DNA from: Verrucomicrobiota bacterium
Lineage (GTDB): Bacteria > Verrucomicrobiota > Verrucomicrobiia > Limisphaerales > Palsa-1400
Length of the DNA stretch: 64,000 nt
Assembly: GCA_050014435.1 (NCBI GenBank)
Contig: JBEKDI010000016.1
Location: 410 to 64,409 of the forward strand
Direction of reading: 5' to 3'
Below the pieces are notes generated by a model that saw only the letters and a program-made list of their open reading frames with translations, made no database searches and had not been told where the DNA came from. A program made the position numbers and the translations under genes. Positions 4,635-15,280 of this stretch are shown in pieces. Positions within the stretch are counted from its first letter, which is position 1. The number at the start of each line of letters is the position of its first letter.

Positions 4635-4898
4635 GGCCGCGGATATAAGCCGCATTACTACTCCGTGACTTCCACTTGCAGGCCTCGCGACCGCGCGTCA
4701 TTCACAATCCGCTCCAATTCGTGGCTTGCAGCGTCGTCAATTCACTCCTCGCCGCATTGCGAGCAGAGGGTTGCGCGCACCCCGCGCACAACGACCCCAC
4801 GTCAATCAGATTTAGCTTTACTTTACGATTGTTTTCGCCTATCATCCTCCTTTCGTAGCGCGTTTGTGAACAGGAGCGGAGTCCGTATAAGAGCAGGA

Positions 4899-7800
4899 AT
4901 GAAACCGAACTCTCTCTTACTGGCCGCAGTTTTAATGGCTATTGTCGCTCTGCCGCTTCCCTCCCAAGCGGGAGCGCAATCTTTGCGAGGAAGTGTTCCT
5001 TGCATTTTCCCGGACCTGAAGGCCATCGGAGAGCTCTCCAAGGCTGAAAGGCTGGATTTAGTGATCGGGTTGCCGCTGCGCAACAAGCCCGCCCTCACCA
5101 ACCTTCTCCAGCAACTTTATGACCCGAACAGCCCACAGTATCACCGGTTTCTAACCCCTGCCCAGTTCGCCGAGAGATTTTCCCCAACGGAGGCGGATTA
5201 TCGGGCCGTCGCCGCGTACGCCATGAGCTCCGGGTTAACCGTCATGCGCACCCATGGCAACCGCACCCTGCTCGGCGTGAACGGAGCCGTGGCAGATGTC
5301 AACAAAACCTTTCATGTCAGCTTGCGGACATATCAGCATCCGACGGAACCGCGCACATTTTACGCCCCGGACAAGGAACCGACGTTGGCCTTGAACGTGC
5401 CCATTCTGTCGGTGAGCGGACTGAATAATTATACATTGCCGCGCCCGATGATTCGCCGGCGTTCAGCGTCCGCCCAAGGCGCCAGCCCGCAGCCGCAGGC
5501 TGGCACCGGTCCAGCCGGGGCCTTCCTCGGAAATGATTTCCGCGCCGCGTACGTTCCGGGCGTGCCTCTGACCGGTTCAGGGCAGACCGTCGGCTTGTTG
5601 GAGCTTGATGCTTTCTATGCGAACGACATTCTTACCTACGAACAGCTGGCCGGCATCGCGCCTGTGCCGCTGACAACGATTCTCGTGGGCGGGTACAACG
5701 GAGCCGTCGGAGCCAACAATTCCGAAGTGGCGCTCGATATCGAAATGGCCGTGTCCATGGCGCCAGGGCTCGACGCCGTTGTCGTCTATGAAGCGGATTA
5801 CGGCACCGTCGGGGCGGGGAACGAAATCCTGAATGAAATGGCTGCTCCGTCGCAGGGTGAACCGCTTTCACGGCAATTGAGCGCTTCATGGCTCTTGGCC
5901 GATGATGAAAACACCGAGCAGATATTTCAGCAGTTCGCCGCCCAGGGACAATCCTTCTTCAACTCTTCGGGCGACTACGACTCCTATTATCCCCCTGGAA
6001 CGGGAAACGAATCCCAGCTCTCTGTGAATGTCACGAGCGTTGGAGGGACCACACTGACCACCGCAGCGGACGGAAGCTGGCTTTCTGAAACTGTTTGGAA
6101 TTGGGGATCAATTGGGAGCAGCGGCGGGGTCACCCCGTATCCAATCCCATCCTGGCAACAAGGGATTGACATGTCGGCCTGCCAAGGCTCCACGACCCTG
6201 CGCAATATTCCCGACGTCGCACTGACTGCGGATAATATCTGGGTCGTCTTCGATCACGGCGCGCAAATGATCTTTGGAGGAACCAGTTGCGCTGCTCCGC
6301 TGTGGGCCGGATTCACGGCCTTGGTCAATGAGCAGGCGAATACGTATGGCTGGCCGCCGGTCGGATTCATTAACCCCGCCCTCTATGCCCTTGCCAAAAG
6401 TCCTTCATACACGAATTGCTTTCATGACATCACCGCGGGCAATAATACTTGGGTCGGCAGTCCCAACCTTTATTATGCAGTTCCCGGTTATGATCTTTGC
6501 ACGGGTCTGGGCACTCCCGCCGGGCAACCGTTGATCGATGCCCTGGCCATTCCTGATTACATGGCCATCACCCCATTCGACGGTTTTGCCTCCAGCGGCA
6601 ATCCTGGCGGGCCGTTGACGATCACCGAGGAAACGATGGCGCTTACGAACGCCGGAATGGAGCCGCTGAATTGGACTGTCAATTATTCTTCACCCTGGCT
6701 GAATGTCTCCACCAACGGCGGCGCGTTGGCGCCATTAAATGGGTCATCGACCGTGACTGTGAGTCTGAATTCCGAAGCCAGCAACCTTGTCCCGGGCTTA
6801 TATACTGCGACTCTTTGGTTCACCAACCAAAATGATGAATTCGCCGAGGCCCGCACCTTCACCTTGAACGTGCTTGGCGCGCCTGTGGTCATCGCGCCGC
6901 CCGCAAATCGGGAAATCGCCGCAGGTGACGGTGTGGCATTTTCAGTGACGGCGTCCGGCGCCACGCCGCTGTCTTACTTCTGGCAGCAGAACGGCGTCAA
7001 CATTTCGGGCGCGACCAACTCAACGCTCGTCTTGACTAATGTGCCGGCAGCGGACACCGCCAGTCAGTTTAGTTGCGCCATCACCAACACCTACGGCGCG
7101 GTCACCAGTTCCGTGGCTTTGTTGACTGTCGCCAACCCCTTGTATTGTTTTCACGGACCTGATGGGGCCAATCCGTGTGCGGCCCTGGTGCAGGCTACTG
7201 ACGGGAATTTTTATGGCACCACAGAATACGGCGGAGCGTATGGTTTTGGCACCGTATTCAGACTAACAATAAACGGCGTGCTAACCACATTGGTTTCGTT
7301 TAACAGCACCAATGGAGCAAATCCCGTTGCCGGCTTGGTGCAAGCCAGAGATGGCAATCTCTATGGCGTAACGATGAATGGCGGCATTGCCATCGGCGAG
7401 CAGGGTTACGGGACCTTCTTCAGAATGACGACCAATGGCCAGTTCACCAGCCTGCTTTTGTTCAACTACTTCGCCAGCAATCCCGAAGGCGGACTGGTGC
7501 AGGGCAGCGATGGGAATCTCTATGGCACCACCACAAGCGGAGGCACAGCCTATGCAGGCTGCGTCATCAGATTAACAACTACGGGTGGACTGACGACGCT
7601 GACGTCGTTCGATCCGCCGGCTTCGGGAAGCATGGTCACCAGCAGTTTGATCCAGGGCAGCGATGGCAATTTCTACGGCGCCGCGTCAGGCGGTGGCGCG
7701 AACACTTATGGAACCGTGTTCGATGTCACGACCAATGGGACGCTAAACACCTTCGATTCGTTTTCGTTTCTGGCCGACCCAAAAGGCGGCGTCGTCCAGG

Positions 7801-10800
7801 GCAGGGACGGGAACTTTTATGGCACGACCTACTTCGGCGGCGATTACCGGGACGGCACGGTATTCAAAATGACACCCAGCGGAGCACTGACGACGGTGGT
7901 TTCTTTTTATCCATTTCGCGGGACCGCGACCGGTCAGTGGCCTGTTGCGGGGTTAATGCAGGCCAGCGACGGGAATTTCTATGGCGCCACGACCGCCGGC
8001 GGAACGAACAATAATGGGACCCTCTTCGAGACGACGACGAACGGTGTGGTGAATACATTCGTCTCCTTCGAAGGCGCCGACGGAGCCAGCCCCCAAGCCG
8101 CGGTGACGCAAGGCGGCGATATGTATTTATATGGAACTGCGACTTACGGCGGCGTCGGTTACAACGGCGCCGCCGGGAGCGGAAATGGAACAATCTTCCG
8201 TGTGGCGATACCAGGTTTGCCAGTCATCGTTGCGCAACCTGTGAGCCAAGCGGTCAACCTCGGTGGCGCGGTTACCTTCGCCGTCAACGCCAGCAACACC
8301 TTGCCGTTGACTTATCTCTGGCTCCGCAATGGCGTAGTCGTGCCGGGAGCGACCAATAATGTTCTGACACTGACAAACGTGGGAATCCGGAATGTCGGCA
8401 ACTATAATGCCGTAATTACAAGCAGCTTCGACAGCGTGACCAGCGCGGTTGCCACGTTGACCATCAATAATAGCACGTGCATCGGTCCGCTTCCGGGCAT
8501 CGTCGCGTGGTGGCGTGGTGAAGGCAATGCCAACGACGTTATTGGAGGCAACAACGGCACCCTGATGGACGGTGCCAGCTTCACCAACGGCTTGGATGGG
8601 GACGGCTTCGCGTTCAATGGCAACGGAAGTTACGTTCAACTTCCAGAAAACTTGTTTCCATTCCCCAACGCCGGCCCCTTCTCCATTGAGTTGTGGTTTG
8701 AGACAGCAACCGGCGGGGTCATTCTCGAAGAGCAGGACGTGCCGAATGGATGGGTGCCTGATTTATATGTAGGAACGGATGGGAATCTCTATACGCAAAT
8801 CTTCTGGGACGGAGCCTTTAACCAAATCAGCACCACTACTCCCGTCAATGACGGTGCATTTCATCATGCGGCTGTCACCTTTGACGGAATCAACGAAACA
8901 CTTTATCTCGACGGCGCAAAAGCAGGGGCGACCACATCGCAATACTCCAGCTCTACCAGCAATTACTTCTGCCAACTCGGCACTGGCTACACGCAATATT
9001 GGCCGGCCGGCAATGGCGGTTGGTTTCCCTTCAACGGCATTATCGATGAGGTAAGCCTTTACGGCAACGCGTTGACAGCGGACCAGATCATCGCAATCTA
9101 CAACGCCGCTACCGCAGGCAAATGCGCCGGTGAGCTTTTGCCCGCCATCGTGGCGCAGCCGATTAACCAAACGATCCTTGCCGGACAAACCGCCACGTTT
9201 GGCGTCACCGCAGTCAGCTTCCTGCCATTGGCCTACCAATGGTTCAAGAACGGGTCGGCTCTGACCGGCGCCACAAACACAAGTTACCTCGTGACCAACG
9301 CTCAACCGTCTGACTCGGGAGCCCAGTTTGGCTGTCAGATTTCCACGACGCAGGGCCTCACGAACAGCGCCACCGTCGTGCTGACGGTAATGAGCCCGCC
9401 CGTCATCGTCGTGCCGCCAATGAGTCTGACTGTGCCTGCAGGAGGAAGCGCCCTTTTCACCATAAACGTCACGGGCACCACGCCTTTTTATTATCTCTGG
9501 CTGAGTAACAATACGCCCATCGCGCGAGCGACAGCTTCAAATTATTTCCTGAACAATATTCCATTGTCCGATTCCGGCGCGCAGTTCAGTTGCCTAGTGA
9601 GCAACGCCCTGGGAACGACTAGCAGCGCTCCTGCCCTGCTGACCGTGACAACCAACCTGCCGCCCACAGTGCTTTCTCTTTACTCATTTGGCGGACCCGA
9701 CGGCGCGAAGCCGCAGGCTGGTTTGGACCAAGGCAGCGACGGCAATTTCTATGGCACGACGGCGGCAGGCGGCGCCAATGGAGATGGGACTGTGTTTCAA
9801 TTCACAACCAACCACCTGCTGACCAGCCTCGTCTCTTTCACGGGAACCAACGGCAGCGCGCCGCAAGGGATCTTGTTGGAGGGAAGCGATGGCAATTTCT
9901 ATGGCACGACCAGCGCCGGCGGATCCAGTGCCTGCGGGACCGTCTTTCGGGTGGCCACGAACGGCGCGCTGACCAGCTTGGTCTCGTTTACCAGCACCAA
10001 CGATGGCGCCTTTCCACGAGGCGGTCTGGTGCAGGCAGGGGACGGCACTTTCTATGGCACGACCAGCGCGGGCGGCGGATCGACTCCCTACAGCGGGATT
10101 TACGGCACTGTGTTCCGCATGACATCCAATGGCGCCCTGACCAACTTGGTCTATTTCACTTACGCCAACGGTGCCGGCCCGGAGGCTGGCTTGGTTTGGG
10201 GCGGCGACGGATCCTTATATGGCACGACGGAATTCGGCGGCCTCGACCAGTACGGGGAAGTAGGCTATGGCTATGGCACAGTCTTCAAGATCACCACCAA
10301 CGGCCTTTTGACAACTTTATACACCTTCCTCGAGACAAATGGATATACTCCCACGACGCCCATCTCAGTATTGCCTGCCAGCGACGGTTACCTCTATGGC
10401 ACGACTCTCTGGGGCGGATGGACTAGCGGCGCCGGAACTGTGTTTCGCTTAACCACCAACGGCGCGATCGCTCCCTTGGTCTATTTCGGCAACACCAATG
10501 GAGCGTCACCCTATGGCGGACTGATGCAGGCCAGTGACGGGAATTTCTACGGCACAACCGAAACGGGCGGAGCTTATGGCGACGGCACGGTGTTCAAGAT
10601 GACCACCAACGGCGTGTTGACCACCCTCTTCTGCTTTTCCGGTTCCAACGGCTCGTCACCAGAAGGCATCTTGGTGCAGGGCTACGATGGCAATCTTTAC
10701 GGAACGACCACTTTCGGCGGCGCGGGCTATAACGGATCTCCAACCAGTGGCAACGGCACCATCTTTGTTGTCCTCCTTTCTGCCAGCGCCTCCCCTTTGG

Positions 10801-11009
10801 CGATTACGTCGGTGGCGCTTCTTCCGACTGGGAACGTCCAATTGACGATGACGGGATGGCCCGGGAATGTCTTTCGACTCATGGGATCAACGGACCTGCT
10901 AAACTGGCAAACGATTGCCACGATGACGAACTTTACCGGCGCCTGCACATTCGCTGATTCCGCCACAACCAACCTCACCGCTCGTTTCTACGAACTCGTG
11001 TCTCCTTAA
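4899..11009 (+). CDS. Giant secreted sedolisin (S53) peptidase fused to Ig-like, LamG and 2 x 7 GloVer (Gloeo_Verruco) repeat modules
   Basis: The ORF track gives 4665..11009; I start it at ATG 4899, where the signal peptide MKPNSLLLAAVLMAIVALPLPSQAGAQ begins. The N-terminus is a pro-kumamolisin-type prodomain (LYDPNSPQYHRFLTPAQFAERF) plus an S53 catalytic domain with EVALDIEMA, SSGDYDS and GGTSCAAPLWAG. Ig-like modules follow (e.g. PLSYFWQQNG...LLTV). Seven repeats of the DGNFYGTT..GG..G.GTVF type span ~7135-8215. A LamG-type jelly roll spans ~8465-9125 (WWRGEGNANDV, IDEVSLYGNALTADQIIAIYNA). Two more Ig modules, seven more GloVer repeats (~9670-10775) and a ~70-aa C-terminal module complete the protein. 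Confidence 0.9.
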   Translation: MKPNSLLLAAVLMAIVALPLPSQAGAQSLRGSVPCIFPDLKAIGELSKAERLDLVIGLPLRNKPALTNLLQQLYDPNSPQYHRFLTPAQFAERFSPTEADYRAVAAYAMSSGLTVMRTHGNRTLLGVNGAVADVNKTFHVSLRTYQHPTEPRTFYAPDKEPTLALNVPILSVSGLNNYTLPRPMIRRRSASAQGASPQPQAGTGPAGAFLGNDFRAAYVPGVPLTGSGQTVGLLELDAFYANDILTYEQLAGIAPVPLTTILVGGYNGAVGANNSEVALDIEMAVSMAPGLDAVVVYEADYGTVGAGNEILNEMAAPSQGEPLSRQLSASWLLADDENTEQIFQQFAAQGQSFFNSSGDYDSYYPPGTGNESQLSVNVTSVGGTTLTTAADGSWLSETVWNWGSIGSSGGVTPYPIPSWQQGIDMSACQGSTTLRNIPDVALTADNIWVVFDHGAQMIFGGTSCAAPLWAGFTALVNEQANTYGWPPVGFINPALYALAKSPSYTNCFHDITAGNNTWVGSPNLYYAVPGYDLCTGLGTPAGQPLIDALAIPDYMAITPFDGFASSGNPGGPLTITEETMALTNAGMEPLNWTVNYSSPWLNVSTNGGALAPLNGSSTVTVSLNSEASNLVPGLYTATLWFTNQNDEFAEARTFTLNVLGAPVVIAPPANREIAAGDGVAFSVTASGATPLSYFWQQNGVNISGATNSTLVLTNVPAADTASQFSCAITNTYGAVTSSVALLTVANPLYCFHGPDGANPCAALVQATDGNFYGTTEYGGAYGFGTVFRLTINGVLTTLVSFNSTNGANPVAGLVQARDGNLYGVTMNGGIAIGEQGYGTFFRMTTNGQFTSLLLFNYFASNPEGGLVQGSDGNLYGTTTSGGTAYAGCVIRLTTTGGLTTLTSFDPPASGSMVTSSLIQGSDGNFYGAASGGGANTYGTVFDVTTNGTLNTFDSFSFLADPKGGVVQGRDGNFYGTTYFGGDYRDGTVFKMTPSGALTTVVSFYPFRGTATGQWPVAGLMQASDGNFYGATTAGGTNNNGTLFETTTNGVVNTFVSFEGADGASPQAAVTQGGDMYLYGTATYGGVGYNGAAGSGNGTIFRVAIPGLPVIVAQPVSQAVNLGGAVTFAVNASNTLPLTYLWLRNGVVVPGATNNVLTLTNVGIRNVGNYNAVITSSFDSVTSAVATLTINNSTCIGPLPGIVAWWRGEGNANDVIGGNNGTLMDGASFTNGLDGDGFAFNGNGSYVQLPENLFPFPNAGPFSIELWFETATGGVILEEQDVPNGWVPDLYVGTDGNLYTQIFWDGAFNQISTTTPVNDGAFHHAAVTFDGINETLYLDGAKAGATTSQYSSSTSNYFCQLGTGYTQYWPAGNGGWFPFNGIIDEVSLYGNALTADQIIAIYNAATAGKCAGELLPAIVAQPINQTILAGQTATFGVTAVSFLPLAYQWFKNGSALTGATNTSYLVTNAQPSDSGAQFGCQISTTQGLTNSATVVLTVMSPPVIVVPPMSLTVPAGGSALFTINVTGTTPFYYLWLSNNTPIARATASNYFLNNIPLSDSGAQFSCLVSNALGTTSSAPALLTVTTNLPPTVLSLYSFGGPDGAKPQAGLDQGSDGNFYGTTAAGGANGDGTVFQFTTNHLLTSLVSFTGTNGSAPQGILLEGSDGNFYGTTSAGGSSACGTVFRVATNGALTSLVSFTSTNDGAFPRGGLVQAGDGTFYGTTSAGGGSTPYSGIYGTVFRMTSNGALTNLVYFTYANGAGPEAGLVWGGDGSLYGTTEFGGLDQYGEVGYGYGTVFKITTNGLLTTLYTFLETNGYTPTTPISVLPASDGYLYGTTLWGGWTSGAGTVFRLTTNGAIAPLVYFGNTNGASPYGGLMQASDGNFYGTTETGGAYGDGTVFKMTTNGVLTTLFCFSGSNGSSPEGILVQGYDGNLYGTTTFGGAGYNGSPTSGNGTIFVVLLSASASPLAITSVALLPTGNVQLTMTGWPGNVFRLMGSTDLLNWQTIATMTNFTGACTFADSATTNLTARFYELVSP

Positions 11010-11103
11010 TTGTTTCAATAGCGGGCTACAACGGTGATCGTCCCGCCGGTGTCACTCCCCATTCCTTCTTCCGCGCAGGGCTGTTCTGTTGTATTGTGGC
11101 GCC

Positions 11104-12060
11104 ATGTCGCAGCCGGATGAAAATGCGGGGCCAGCCGCCGATGCGCGGATTTTGGAGTTCCTCCGCCATCTGGCCATTGACAAGGACGCCTCCATTTACA
11201 CGCAGAGGAATTACCGCCAAGCCTTGCTCGAATTCTTCGCCTGGTTCAAAAAACAGCGTGGCTCCGCCCCGGATTGGCCCGTCTTGCAGCGGGACGACTT
11301 TCGCGATTTTCTCCGCTTCCTCGGCCGCGGCCAGTTGAGCCGCGCCGCCATTCAACTCCGCTTTTCCGCGCTGCGTTCTTTTTACAAATTTCTCATTCGC
11401 AACGGCGTGGCGGAGGCTTCGCCCATCCGGAATCTTTCGCTGCCCCAATCGCCAAAGCGCCTGCCCCTTTTCCTCACGGTCAAGCAATTGCAGGACCTGC
11501 TCGAAGCGCCTGGAGCGGAATTGCGCCGCGAGGCGGAAAAAGGCGAAGCGGACGCCGCCCTTTATTTTCGTGATGCAGCGATTCTGGAGGTGATTTATTC
11601 CTGCGGCTTGCGCGTCAGCGAGTTGTGCCGGCTTTGCGCCGCGGACATCGATTGGTCCCAACAAGTGGTGTGCGTGCGCGGCAAGGGAAGAAAGGAGCGG
11701 CTCGTGCCCATCGGCGGACCCGCGCTGAAGGCGATCCGCGCCTACTGGAAACATCGCACCGCCCCGGTCCTGGGCGGCCAGGCGGTTTTTTCCGCGCGTC
11801 CGAACAAGACCACCCCGCTGTCGCCGCGCACCGTGCAGACGCGCCTGAAGAAATATCTGTGCTCAGCCGGACTGGACCCGCACATGACGCCGCACAAATT
11901 GCGCCACAGTTTCGCCACACACTTGTTGGACGCCGGGGCGGATTTGCGCAGCGTGCAGGAATTGCTGGGCCACGCCCACTTGGTCACGACGCAGGTCTAT
12001 ACCCACATCACGACCGAGCGATTGAAGCGCGCCTACGATCAGGCCCATCCCCGCGCCTGA
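11104..12060 (+). CDS. Tyrosine site-specific recombinase, XerC/XerD-like
   Basis: N-terminal SAM-like domain (ILEFLRHLAIDKDASIYTQRNYRQALLEFF). Catalytic signature is present: GLRVSEL (Arg), HKLRHSFATHLL (His-x-x-Arg) and LLGHAHLVTTQVYTH (His, Tyr). ATG 11104 is preferred over the track start at 11089. Confidence 0.85.
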   Translation: MSQPDENAGPAADARILEFLRHLAIDKDASIYTQRNYRQALLEFFAWFKKQRGSAPDWPVLQRDDFRDFLRFLGRGQLSRAAIQLRFSALRSFYKFLIRNGVAEASPIRNLSLPQSPKRLPLFLTVKQLQDLLEAPGAELRREAEKGEADAALYFRDAAILEVIYSCGLRVSELCRLCAADIDWSQQVVCVRGKGRKERLVPIGGPALKAIRAYWKHRTAPVLGGQAVFSARPNKTTPLSPRTVQTRLKKYLCSAGLDPHMTPHKLRHSFATHLLDAGADLRSVQELLGHAHLVTTQVYTHITTERLKRAYDQAHPRA

Positions 12061-12081
12061 GAATGCCGCGCGGGCGAAGGC

Positions 12082-12158
12082 TGGTGCCAGCGAGTGGAAT
12101 CGAACCACTGACCTCGGGCTTATGAGTCCCACGCTCTAACCAACTGAGCTACGCTGGC
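12082..12158 (-). tRNA. tRNA with CAU anticodon (elongator Met, or Ile2 if lysidine-modified), CCA encoded
   Basis: The reverse complement reads GCCAGCG TA GCTC AGTTGGTTA GAGC G TGGGA CTCATAA GCCCG AGGTC AGTGG TTCGATT CCACT CGCTGGC A CCA. This gives a 7-bp acceptor stem, D arm, TPsiC arm with TTCGATT and anticodon loop CT-CAT-AA. G1-C72 is paired, so it is not an initiator. There is one A31/G39 mismatch in the anticodon stem. Confidence 0.9.
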
Positions 12159-12207
12159 CTGAGGGGCTATACTTCGCGGAGAACCATGCCGGTGTCAAAT
12201 TCGATTT

Positions 12208-12250
12208 TAAAAACAAAAAGCCCCTGTCCAGCCTTTCGGCTGAACAGAGG
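12208..12250 (-). terminator. Rho-independent terminator (minus strand)
   Basis: The minus strand reads CCUCUGUUCAGCC-GAAA-GGCUGGACAGGGG followed by CUUUUUGUUUUUA. That is a 13-bp stem with a GAAA loop. Its two non-Watson-Crick positions are G-U on the minus strand but C-A mismatches on the plus strand, so the signal is strand-specific. Confidence 0.7.
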
Positions 12251-13020
12251 CAAATTGGGATCTGGGAGTTCGCCATGCTCTCTTTCCCACGCTGACATTA
12301 GGCGCACCCTTGCGGGGCTGCCAGCTTCCCGACGCCATTCTCCACGGCAAGCGGAGTTTCCGGCCTCATAGCAGGGCCGTCCAGCGCCTTGCGGTCGCTG
12401 AATTATTGAGTGAGGCCTCTTAGCTCGCTTGGGCTGGCGCTTGCGGACGCCGGCTTGCGAACCAGGTCAACACACGTATGCGACTTGGATCCGCGTCTTG
12501 ACCATTTGCCTTGGGACAGCCACCGCTTTTGGCGATGCGTTTGCCCAATGCCACGGGTCTGACCTCTTAACTCTCAGGTTGCCTTTCGTCACATGCCGGC
12601 GGTGTCGTTTGCAACATCGCCTGCATCTTGGAAGGTTTTTACCAGCCGTGCCTTGGCTGTGTCTCCTTCCCGGTGCGCATGCTCACTTTGTCCCGCCTTT
12701 CAGCGTCTTTCCTTGGGCTGGCCTTGTCTCCAAGACCGCCAGAGCCATCCGCCCCGTGCTGATGCACAGTAGCAACCTCTTACCCTCCGGGTAACTGCGA
12801 TTCGCCCAAGCCTGAAACCAGCCTGAACTACTTGACTCGGCTCGGAACGGCTTCTTTTCGTTCCTTGCCGCTCAGTTCCTGTCTCGCGTTACTGACGGCG
12901 CGCGAACGCCGCCAGAGGAACTGGTGAATTCTGCCTCCAGTCTCCGCTTCTTGCGAGGCGGACTTCGAGGGGTTGGGCCAACCAGCCTGACTCAACCATT
13001 CCCCCGGTCACCCGGGGTTA
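12208..13020 (-). ncRNA. Candidate large structured non-coding RNA, class unknown; 5' end not defined
   Basis: There is no credible ORF in any frame. On the minus strand CGCAAG (C-GCAA-G) occurs five times, seen as plus-strand cttgcg at 12309, 12388, 12440, 12454 and 12950, each flanked by complementary arms. A GUGA-capped 6-bp hairpin lies at 13002-13017. An 8-bp long-range helix pairs 12873-12880 with 12915-12922 and encloses a UUCG-type hairpin. UAAGAGG occurs three times. The terminator at 12208-12250 forms the 3' end. Confidence 0.4.
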
Positions 13021-13124
13021 TCCTTGGAACTTCAACAGCTTTCTTTCGTCCACCGCATTCATTCCAGCTCTTTCAATGAACTGGAAAGATCATGGCATAT
13101 TCTCCGTGACAGTAATACTAAATC

Positions 13125-13268
13125 TTATCCACAGGCTTATTCACCATCGCCTCATCTTATTCACAACCCGCGACCGCCGGAAAAATCAATACTGACGCTA
13201 TTTTTGCGCGTGTGCGAGCCTCCAACGCCGGAGCCGCACGGGGTGATGCCGGCGGCGATGGTGGATAA
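13125..13268. promoter_or_regulatory. Cluster of DnaA-box-like 9-mers with a 15-bp inverted repeat
   Basis: TTATCCACA at 13125-13133 is a perfect E. coli-type box. TTATTCACC lies at 13137-13145 and TTATTCACA at 13157-13165. TTATCCACC lies on the other strand at 13260-13268. TTATTCACCATCGCC (13137-13151) and GGCGATGGTGGATAA (13254-13268) form an inverted repeat. An AT-rich tract follows at ~13285-13345. Confidence 0.35.
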
Positions 13269-13453
13269 GTTTTGAGCCGGAAAAGCGCGAAAAACTGCGA
13301 AAAATGTAAAAATCGGCCAAGAGGATTATGTCAACAATAGAAATTTTCCTCCCTTTCCTCCTTGGGTGGATAGAGCCGGGGCGCGGAGGCCGTTTTTGCG
13401 GCTCCAGTTCGTCAGAAGGGGTTCTCGTTGAAGAAGTTGTCCCTCGCCCGGAC

Positions 13454-13558
13454 TCAGGCTTTCGGGGCTGGCTTCTTCGTCTTGGCCGCGGCTTTTTTCC
13501 GTTTGATGTAGGCGGCCCGGCGGCTGCGTTTCACGACTTTATTTGTTTGTTGGCCCAT
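13454..13558 (-). CDS. Possible 34-aa highly basic peptide (below the ORF-track cutoff)
   Basis: The minus-strand ATG at 13558 translates to MGQQTNKVVKRSRRAAYIKRKKAAAKTKKPAPKA, ending at a TGA stop (13456-13454). A GGAG lies ~14 nt upstream. The ORF is divergent from the 13604 gene. No family was recognised. Confidence 0.3.
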   Translation of the reverse strand: MGQQTNKVVKRSRRAAYIKRKKAAAKTKKPAPKA

Positions 13559-13603
13559 AAATCTTTACTTTGCTCCAAGAATTGCGTTCTCTAAAGGCGC
13601 ACT

Positions 13604-14245
13604 ATGAAGAGATGGCGCTGTTCATTCAATATCTATTTTGCATTGGCCTGCCTTGCACTGGGGGGGGGTTGCGCCTCGATGGGGGGAGACAACCCCAAAA
13701 AACAGCAATCCACCATCCGCCTCTACATCGAGGGGCAAAAAGCCGACAGAACAACTTCCGGCACGGTTCTGGTCACGCGGGACAAGATTCCCTTCACCGT
13801 CGAGCGCGATCCGTTTCTGGATGAAGGCGACCTCGCCAAAGCGTCGATCGTGGATGACCCGTCCGGCGACGGCGGTTATTCCATTCAACTGACTTTCAAC
13901 GAACACGGCACGTTGTTGCTGGACATGTACAGCACCGACCACAAGGGCAGGCACATCATCGTCTTCTCCCAATTCCCCAAGCCCGGCAAAAAGGCGCATG
14001 AGGCAAAGAAAAAATCGGGCGATTCGGATGACTCGGATTTGGTGGAGCCGTCCAGCGTTTCGTCGCCGCCCGCGGGCACGAATACCACCCGGGAATCCGC
14101 CTGGCTGGGCGCGGTGTTGATCCGGCAGCGCATCTCCAACGGCATGTTTCGATTCACCCCGGACGCCTCGCGCGCGGAGGGCGTCCGCATTGTGCGCGGA
14201 CTGAGAAACGTCATCGCCAAGGCGAAGAAAAGCGACAAGTTTTAG
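13604..14245 (+). CDS. Hypothetical lipoprotein
   Basis: 213-aa ORF with a lipobox (FALACLALGGGC-ASMG). The C-terminal half is acidic/Ser-rich and the tail is basic. No catalytic motif was recognised. Confidence 0.7.
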   Translation: MKRWRCSFNIYFALACLALGGGCASMGGDNPKKQQSTIRLYIEGQKADRTTSGTVLVTRDKIPFTVERDPFLDEGDLAKASIVDDPSGDGGYSIQLTFNEHGTLLLDMYSTDHKGRHIIVFSQFPKPGKKAHEAKKKSGDSDDSDLVEPSSVSSPPAGTNTTRESAWLGAVLIRQRISNGMFRFTPDASRAEGVRIVRGLRNVIAKAKKSDKF

Positions 14246-14260
14246 GCAATCCCCGCCGGC

Positions 14261-15280
14261 TTGCTGTTGATGGACGTGAATAGATTTCTTTTCTCAGTGC
14301 TTTTTGTTTGCATCCGGCTTGCCGCCCTGGGGCAACCGTTCCATGTGCCCACCGCCAATCAAGCCCTGTTCGAGCCAGGGGGCGAGGAGAGGTTTTTTGT
14401 CGGGACCACCGGCCATTCCTGGACCAGCGGCTGCTTTGGCTGCGTGCGTTCCGGCGGCTGGCAAATGCACGAGGGGCTGGATATCAAGTGCCTGCAACGC
14501 GACAAGCGCGGCGAACCGGCCGACCCGGTGATGGCCACCGCTGATGGCGCGGTGATGTACATGAATAACAAACCTTCCCTTTCCAATTACGGCCGCTACG
14601 TTGTTTTGCGGCACGTCGTTGACGGCGTTGAAGTTTATTCCCTCTACGCCCACCTGTCGGAAATTGTCCCCGGCCTCAATCCCGGCCAGGCCGTGAAGAC
14701 GGGCGAAAAAATCGCCGTGATGGGCCGCACCACCAACACGCGCTCCGGCATTCCCAGGGAACGCGCCCACGTCCACTTTGAGTTGAATCTTTTTTACAAC
14801 GACCATTTCAGCGCCTGGTACAAAAAGCAGTATCCAAAGGAACGCGACGACCACGGCATCTGGAACGGGCAAAACCTGGTGGGCTTCGATCCGCGCCTGA
14901 TCCTGCTGGCCGAGCGCGACGAGGGCGCGCAGTTCAGCCTCGTGCGCTGGCTGCAACAGCGCACCGAAATTTGCCGTGTCCTGGTGCGGAAGACCGACTT
15001 CTCCTGGCTCAGACGCTATCCCATGCTGGTGCGGGACGACCCGGCCCTGCCGCGCGGACAAATCGCCGGTTATGAAATGGCATTCGATTTCAACGGGCTG
15101 CCGTTCGAGCTGATCCCCCGCCCGGCCTCGCAGTTCAAGGGGACCGCCAGGTATCAACTGCTCTCGGTCAATGAAGCCGAATACACCAAAAACCCCTGCC
15201 GCCGGCTGGTGACACGGCGGGGCGCGCATTTCCAACTCGGCCGGGAAGGCATCGACCTGCTCGATCTGCTGACCGAATGA
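14261..15280 (+). CDS. M23 family metallopeptidase
   Basis: HEGLDI (HxxxD) and AHVHFEL (HxH) zinc-ligand motifs sit at the correct spacing. YSLYAHLSEI and IAVMGRTTNT blocks and an N-terminal signal/anchor are present. Confidence 0.85.
   Translation: MLLMDVNRFLFSVLFVCIRLAALGQPFHVPTANQALFEPGGEERFFVGTTGHSWTSGCFGCVRSGGWQMHEGLDIKCLQRDKRGEPADPVMATADGAVMYMNNKPSLSNYGRYVVLRHVVDGVEVYSLYAHLSEIVPGLNPGQAVKTGEKIAVMGRTTNTRSGIPRERAHVHFELNLFYNDHFSAWYKKQYPKERDDHGIWNGQNLVGFDPRLILLAERDEGAQFSLVRWLQQRTEICRVLVRKTDFSWLRRYPMLVRDDPALPRGQIAGYEMAFDFNGLPFELIPRPASQFKGTARYQLLSVNEAEYTKNPCRRLVTRRGAHFQLGREGIDLLDLLTE

Follow-up and report, generated by a model that had tools for sequence, protein, structure and literature searches.

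MISL RNA gene in a Verrucomicrobiota genome: a full-length RF03079 member with predicted transcript ends, additional tertiary helices and an upstream DnaA-box-like array

Identity of the minus-strand RNA gene

The region studied here encodes MISL RNA, a large non-coding RNA found in Verrucomicrobiota, as a full-length member of that family on the minus strand of the window (the whole 64,000-nt stretch of Verrucomicrobiota DNA that was analysed). For the identity and the architecture of the gene taken jointly, we put the probability of this reading at about 0.88. The cmscan search of the whole window against Rfam 15 placed RF03079 (MISL RNA) at 13023..12265, minus strand, with a score of 583.2 bits (gathering score 274.6; E 1.6e-176), and the match covered positions 1-751 of the 751 of the model without truncation. 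The family is typed by Rfam as "Gene; sRNA". No other Rfam family reached the gathering threshold at this site in the whole-window scan, and when 11900-13700 was rescanned permissively (E <= 1), a tRNA was the sole further match. No covariance-model match was obtained, at the gathering threshold or at E <= 1, for GOLLD, ROOL, OLE, HEARO, RNase P, tmRNA and group I/II introns, and ARAGORN likewise returned no tmRNA.

The initial annotation, made from the letters of the window, had left the class of the RNA unassigned and had proposed an Rfam covariance-model scan against these same alternatives; the scan supplied the class, RF03079, above threshold and at full length. The annotation had also described a large, GNRA-rich structured RNA read from the minus strand and provided with its own terminator, a description borne out by the full-length Rfam match, by strong covariation and by the folding energy of the sequence (z -4.6, see below). 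MISL RNA is an already-catalogued class: the feature is real and the class is not new. As the discovery of a new class the region has no significance, a routine Rfam scan already naming it. The MISL motif was reportedly described first by Weinberg and colleagues in NAR in 2017, among 224 candidate structured RNAs, and some of the additions to the Rfam model presented below, pseudoknots included, may already be drawn in the supplement of that original description. Our literature search found no experimental paper on MISL function; the only paper found that names it was Ribonanza, with MISL as a chemical-mapping example.

Compared with the RF03079 family, nothing sets this copy apart, all modelled helices being formed and the host phylum being Verrucomicrobiota. 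What we describe beyond the 751 positions of the model is a covarying 60-nt 5' extension, a 3' linker followed by a terminator, pseudoknots and an upstream box array. MISL is among the largest bacterial non-coding RNAs without an assigned function, and the analysis provides handles on it in the form of predicted transcript ends, a 5' domain outside the model and the box array. Cultured carriers of the gene are Limisphaera sp. VF-2 and a Horticoccus sp.

Consensus fold, proposed tertiary helices and predicted transcript ends

The 103 full-length copies were aligned by MAFFT on sequence only, with no structural information, and the Rfam structure was projected onto this alignment via the window sequence. 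Over the body of the RNA as delimited by RF03079 (12265..13023, minus strand, 759 nt; cmscan and covariation), 86.1% of the structure cells were paired in the 103 homologues, compared with 37-41% when the partners were slid by 1-3 columns. Compensatory changes on both sides were found in 127 of the 171 Rfam pairs, and the covariation score of 0.362, to be compared with 0.07-0.09 in the slid controls, was reached by none of 500 shuffles. The helices of the MISL consensus thus form in the homologues and carry compensatory changes, and the covariation that had been suggested as a check was recovered by simple pair counting on the MAFFT alignment. About 20 helices are kept by compensatory substitutions across two classes, and the structure is under selection. 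The single-sequence fold of the 879-nt minus-strand RNA had an energy of -372.5 kcal/mol (z = -4.6 versus dinucleotide shuffles).

A decayed protein-coding gene, or structure arising by chance in GC-rich DNA, might account for the short ORFs of the region, which extend up to 121 aa; the longest mechanical ORF in 12160-13600 is indeed of that length (12429..12794, plus strand), as stated when the region was first called ORF-free. Stop codons are nevertheless present in all six window frames, the G-U pairs function on the minus strand only, a length of ~750 nt is maintained across two classes, and both-side changes that keep pairing in 127 of 171 pairs are not a product of coding constraint. We therefore give this explanation practically no weight.

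The signals from which a structured RNA had been suspected could be compared with this fold. The hexamer CTTGCG was present on the plus strand at 12309, 12388, 12440, 12454 and 12950, as the five CGCAAG copies of the initial annotation predicted, which makes 5 of the 31 plus-strand matches in 64 kb, for ~0.27 expected per 650 nt. That every copy would form a tetraloop was a slight overstatement: in the covariation-supported structure, hairpin loops hold four of them, and the copy at 12454 lies within a stem. The GUGA hairpin at 13002-13017 corresponds to the first helix in the Rfam model and was paired in 100% of the homologues, and the 8-bp long-range helix 12873-12880/12915-12922 is also a model helix, 95% paired and covarying. 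The hairpin enclosed by this helix, read earlier as UUCG-type, contains no plain tetraloop; its loop UCGCG pairs with a downstream CGCGA as a pseudoknot. The motif UAAGAGG does occur three times in the region on the minus strand, out of four matches in the window, with only two of the three copies conserved in the homologues.

The region had been correctly located, and the conserved RNA reaches ~13083, some 60 nt past the upper limit given for it. This 5' extension outside the Rfam model (13024..13083, minus strand, ~60 nt) was conserved wherever a locus had upstream sequence, among the matches listed. RNAalifold on the extension gave only the outer stem of its second hairpin, the other helices being placed by hand and then counted. 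The first hairpin, H1 (13083..13065, minus strand), has as its core GUUC at 13081-13078 with GAGC at 13070-13067. Its stem (GUUC/GAAC) was 98.6% paired over 108 sequences and its sole variation was from U-A to U-G, which is sensible only in an RNA of this strand. The second hairpin on the same strand, H2, combines an outer stem (13066-13062/13029-13025) with an inner stem (13055-13050/13038-13033); the outer stem was 95% paired, with compensatory changes in all five of its pairs (108 sequences). The covariation score was 0.41, compared with at most 0.11 in the slid controls.

Long-range helices were searched for by mutual-information screening followed by explicit pair counting. Three pseudoknots were supported by covariation and a fourth helix was retained as a near-invariant candidate; all of them are absent from the nested Rfam consensus. 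In PK-A (minus strand), AUGUGA at 12594-12589 would pair with the hairpin loop UCGCAU at 12483-12478, with 98.2% pairing and both-side changes in 6 of 6 pairs, and in PK-B (minus strand) the loop UCGCG at 12905-12901 would pair with CGCGA at 12888-12884, with 96.8% pairing and both-side changes in 4 of 5 pairs. PK-C, GGUUGC at 12777-12772 with GCAACC at 12582-12577 (minus strand), was 100% paired in 103 sequences. This helix is almost invariant, with a single varying pair (CG 100, UA 2, UG 1), and PK-C is for that reason a candidate tertiary helix that fits the sequences but is weakly tested by covariation. Counted jointly, PK-A, PK-B and PK-C were 98.5% paired versus 25-43% in the slid controls. 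Finally, PK-D would connect the extension to the body, the H1 loop UGAA (13075-13072) pairing with UUCA (12928-12925, minus strand) in 98% of the cases versus 12-63% in slid controls, with one covarying pair of three Watson-Crick types (AU 46, UA 45, CG 3, UG 2). Otherwise, the mutual information linking the 5' extension with the body mostly reflected differences between the classes, PK-D being the only contact that held up. A further candidate contact, of the loop at RNA positions 650-658 with positions 684-690, was dropped because its register was ambiguous and it conflicted with a supported hairpin.

The single-stranded or junction core CAACCUGAGAGnUAAGAGGnnAGACCCGU (12553..12585, minus strand, 33 nt) is nearly invariant, its columns being invariant in the 103 sequences of the two classes. 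It holds the 5' strand of a long-range helix that closes a multi-stem junction and whose partner strand is 12415-12408; this helix shows no variation in the 103 sequences, so that covariation neither supports nor refutes it. The pseudoknot helices would anchor the 5' hairpin and remote domains to this near-invariant 33-nt junction (12585-12553), and because they converge there, MISL RNA would adopt a compact tertiary fold rather than a string of independent hairpins. Such pseudoknots would define a compact MISL core suited to structural work.

Conservation around the gene also suggested where the transcript begins and ends. A predicted extended -10 promoter, TGcCATGAT (13097..13089, minus strand), was deduced from conservation: the Verrucomicrobiia-type loci have the consensus TGnTAnnnT, ending 7 nt upstream of the 5' hairpin, and the Opitutia-type loci have CAnnnT at the equivalent position. 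A generic sigma-70 scan found no promoter at the 5' end of MISL. On the 3' side, the minus strand carries a conserved linker (12264-12252) that reads CAYCCCCMAUUUG in essentially all homologues. The linker leads to an intrinsic terminator on that strand, detected by a terminator scan, with a hairpin at 12251..12220 and a U tract at 12219..12210. The hairpin with a GAAA loop and the following T run had been announced by the initial annotation; we counted 14 bp in its stem. In essentially all homologues, MISL is followed by a strong GC hairpin that ends in a U-rich tail, 89 of 111 passing a strict test. MISL would thus be its own transcription unit of ~875 nt, as conservation suggests. The -10 promoter at 13097..13089 would start the RNA near the predicted start site (~13082), with the 5'-terminal hairpin first, and the RNA would continue through the 60-nt extension and the 759-nt modelled body to end at the terminator (12251..12210). 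The transcript probably runs from ~13082 to 12210, and stable expression of MISL is predicted from the conserved promoter and terminator.

Distribution and genomic context

The loci were gathered with an invariant 19-mer of the MISL core in GTDB contigs representing one genome per species, which gave at least 119 stretches; as this 19-mer comes from the invariant core, divergent family members are missed. A single homologue of ~745-760 nt was carried by 118 of the 119 loci among the matches listed, a single copy per genome being read from the fact that each contig occurs once among these matches. The matches listed span two classes of Verrucomicrobiota, Verrucomicrobiia (Limisphaerales, Pedosphaera and "Verrucomicrobiales") and Opitutia (Opitutaceae, Lacunisphaera, Opitutus, Horticoccus and Cephaloticoccus), so that conservation extends well beyond the one strain in which the region had been noticed. 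Nearly all homologues among the matches listed are labelled Verrucomicrobiota. The nearest relative among them, with 98.4% identity over 886 nt, belongs to a Limisphaerales MAG, which assigns the window to that order, and the similarity of the MISL sequences tracks taxonomy, as vertical descent predicts. A blastn search found no MISL match in plasmids and none in phage genomes (50,697 phage records), and in IMG/VR the motif was present in only three fragments of 2.2-2.4 kb, with truncated copies, out of 2.9 million contigs. A few bins among the matches listed are labelled Dongiaceae, Saccharimonadales, Bifidobacteriaceae or Klebsiella; they look mis-binned, because their RNAs are Limisphaerales-like and some of them share Limisphaerales synteny.

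The likeness to GOLLD and ROOL proposed by the initial annotation, in which the RNA would be a relative of these large and ornate phage or prophage RNAs located beside tRNA genes, did not survive these comparisons. The RNA is large and rich in GNRA loops, and the tRNA described downstream was recovered, a tRNA-Met(CAT) at 12158..12082 on the same strand, ~50 nt downstream of the RNA and followed in the window by a tyrosine recombinase gene. This adjacency is however not conserved, a tRNA being found within 1.5 kb downstream in only 2 of the 119 loci among the matches listed, the window itself and its 98%-identical relative. In addition, neither covariance model matched at E <= 1, phage genomes yielded no copy, with the three IMG/VR fragments of ~2.3 kb as the sole viral matches, and similarity followed taxonomy as expected from vertical descent, so that we consider kinship with GOLLD or ROOL effectively refuted. 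ROOL (RF03087) and GOLLD are, like MISL, non-coding RNAs of bacteria that exceed 500 nt, contain many helices and have no assigned biochemical function. MISL differs from them in being chromosomal, without conserved tRNA or phage context, and restricted to Verrucomicrobiota among the matches listed. One published study describes RNA-only homo-oligomeric complexes formed by ROOL and GOLLD (PMC12286853).

Clustering of the flanking ORFs in the loci among the matches listed revealed no gene common to both classes, only class-specific synteny. In 32 Verrucomicrobiia-type loci among these matches, a small basic ORF lies on the upstream side together with a divergent protein of 213 aa and an M23 peptidase. 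In one Opitutia-type locus (L038), a divergent HrpB helicase lies upstream, and an ORF cluster overlapping the HrpB gene recurs in at least 27 loci. Among the long "ORFs" of GC-rich loci, several gave no match in Pfam and probably represent spurious frames.

The small basic ORF (34 aa; 13558..13454, minus strand) belongs to no Pfam or NCBIfam family and lies on the same strand as MISL, 213-790 nt upstream, in the 32 loci among the matches listed. We rejected it as a candidate partner protein, since it is confined to 32 loci of one synteny block and was not found in the Opitutia loci; no other small ORF near MISL was conserved in the loci among the matches listed. The position of this ORF bears on another explanation, according to which MISL would be a cis-acting part of a neighbouring transcript, either the 3' UTR of the basic ORF or a leader co-processed with the tRNA. 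The constant strand and upstream location of the ORF in the 32 loci would fit such an arrangement, as would the fact that, in the window, no terminator-like site was found in the interval separating it from the RNA. However, the ORF was not detected in ~12 loci of the same class with enough upstream sequence, nor in any Opitutia locus, and it co-occurs exactly with the rest of its synteny block, whereas a conserved -10 element directly precedes the 5' hairpin in all loci among the matches listed. As to the leader, the RNA and the tRNA have a terminator between them, and the tRNA itself is unconserved. We regard a cis-acting role as very improbable.

The context would instead fit an RNA gene that is inherited vertically, stands alone and acts in trans, trans action being suggested by the different neighbours of the gene in the two classes. 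RNase P RNA, tmRNA and 6S RNA resemble MISL in standing alone with their own promoter and terminator, in being vertically inherited and in acting in trans, as MISL would; their models did not match, and MISL is 2-5 times longer and found in one phylum. OLE RNA works as a ribonucleoprotein, and its operon also contains the genes of its protein partners. It resembles MISL as a lineage-restricted, highly conserved large RNA present once per locus, but the OLE model did not match MISL, which has no neighbour conserved across classes.

The upstream DnaA-box-like array and possible functions

Upstream of the predicted promoter, the window contains a DnaA-box-like array of four 9-mers (13125..13268). 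On the plus strand, TTATCCACA (13125-13133) and TTATTCACA (13157-13165) are perfect matches to the consensus TTATNCACA, the only two in the 64-kb window, and TTATTCACC (13137-13145) has one mismatch, as does TTATCCACC on the minus strand (13268..13260). Four of the 26 matches with at most one mismatch to TTATNCACA in the window thus fall within 144 bp. The conserved sequence upstream of the promoter holds repeats of TGTGnATAA, which on the opposite strand is the DnaA-box consensus. In 100 loci among the matches listed, drawn from both classes, we counted ~2.5 boxes per locus at -400..0, compared with 0.05-0.09 per 400 nt elsewhere, that is a ~30-fold excess at fixed positions. The Opitutia boxes have conserved offsets and occur in both orientations, and in the loci among the matches listed the boxes accompany MISL rather than any gene next to it.

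The array resembles known DnaA-box clusters, which likewise have several closely spaced 9-mers fitting the consensus with at most one mismatch, upstream of a promoter. In contrast to the boxes of DnaA-controlled promoters, those of MISL are putative DnaA sites, and their commonest variant, TTATTCACC, differs from the consensus at its last base, C instead of A. The DnaA-box reading was made post hoc, and another DNA-binding protein could account for the boxes. Control of MISL transcription at the DNA level, by DnaA or by a protein recognizing similar sites, is probable in view of this array. A search of the window and of the loci among the matches listed gave no dnaA homologue, a weak test with an E. 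coli fragment as its query.

The box array could also be part of the chromosomal replication origin, with MISL as an origin-flanking transcript of which either the synthesis or the RNA itself would act in initiation, comparable to transcription through mioC and gidA in E. coli or to the origin-encoded CcnA RNA of Caulobacter. One published study describes a non-coding RNA gene at a replication origin, so that a precedent exists (PMC8959179). The four DnaA-box-like sites and AT-rich stretches (13280-13345) share a 370-bp intergenic region, the GC skew changes sign near 15 kb, and the boxes accompany MISL in both classes when every other neighbour is different. On the other hand, the skew profile is noisy with a second minimum at 47 kb, the genes left of the site point toward it, the Opitutia-type intergenic region measures ~190-250 bp with a single box in some loci, and the weak search for dnaA was negative. 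An origin at this site seems improbable to us, and an origin-flanking MISL is a less likely alternative to transcription control of the DnaA type.

The box array, which stands at fixed upstream positions in both classes, suggests with low confidence that MISL synthesis would respond to DnaA. With similarly low confidence, we propose a trans-acting role that depends on the fold: MISL could serve as a scaffold for a protein partner, catalyse a reaction or bind a ligand. The functional proposal as a whole, combining trans action and response to DnaA, is tentative and, on our own estimate, has a good deal less than an even chance. We consider still more doubtful the full combination in which MISL would be a ~875-nt RNA with a 5' domain and a pseudoknotted core and would, in addition, be part of the DnaA regulon or lie beside the origin in Verrucomicrobiia and Opitutia at large. 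If true, MISL would be a replication- or cell-cycle-coupled structured RNA without known counterpart; no description of a DnaA-regulated large structured RNA was found in our literature search. The conserved DnaA-box-like array in any case points to a possible physiological context for MISL. As to the spacing of its boxes, E. coli DnaA is reported to prefer pairs of closely spaced sites (PMC11317965).

DnaA-box-like array upstream of MISL

An array of 9-mers resembling DnaA boxes (TTATNCACA, with at most one mismatch) was found at 13125-13268 in the window, upstream of the predicted promoter of the large structured RNA gene MISL. The array was retained at positions -40 to -190 relative to MISL in the listed loci (L001-L119), in both Verrucomicrobiia and Opitutia. 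AT-rich stretches adjoin it in the window (13280-13345), where the sign of the GC skew switches near 15 kb. The array could reflect regulation by DnaA, for which we consider it a candidate; that it corresponds to a replication origin is less likely than such regulation.

Protein-coding neighbours on the upstream side

Two plus-strand genes run divergently from the MISL side. The product of the first (13604-14245) has 213 aa and a lipoprotein-like N-terminus and matched no family; that of the second (14261-15280) is an M23 peptidase with NlpD, DipM, and MepM as relatives. Their synteny was recovered in 30-32 Verrucomicrobiia-type loci among those listed.

A small ORF of 34 aa with a strongly basic composition (MGQQTNKVVKRSRRAAYIKRKKAAAKTKKPAPKA) is located on the minus strand at 13454-13558. 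Its 22 N-terminal residues (MGxQxNKVxKRxRRxxYLKRKK) were conserved in 32 of the 119 listed loci, 213-790 nt upstream of MISL and on the MISL strand in every case, and no corresponding family was found in Pfam or NCBIfam. The distribution of this ORF coincides exactly with that of one synteny block, and our search did not retrieve it in the Opitutia loci listed; any link with MISL is thus tentative.

Loci with unexpected taxonomic labels

Six loci (L018, L023, L039, L043, L045, and L107) are carried by MAG contigs labelled as Dongiaceae, Saccharimonadales, Bifidobacteriaceae or Bifidobacterium, and Klebsiella. All six contain a MISL of the Limisphaerales type, and in some of them the flanking genes show the same synteny as well; transfer is a less likely explanation than mis-binning or mislabelling. 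The only one of the 119 listed loci that matches the invariant MISL 19-mer and lacks a MISL homologue, L111, belongs to a MAG of Candidatus Nanosyncoccus; this match is presumably due to chance.

tRNA, recombinase, and giant ORF

A tRNA-Met(CAT) gene (12082-12158, minus strand) adjoins a gene for a XerC/XerD-type tyrosine recombinase (11089-12060, plus strand) with Phage_integrase and SAM-like N-terminal domains. This pair resembles an integration hotspot and, among the 119 loci listed, is common only to the window and to L079, a locus 98% identical to it. In a plus-strand ORF of 2114 aa (4665-11009), several Ig-like domains accompany a pro-kumamolisin activation domain and a laminin-G/concanavalin-like domain, and BACON_2 is matched weakly; this ORF probably encodes a giant secreted or surface protein.
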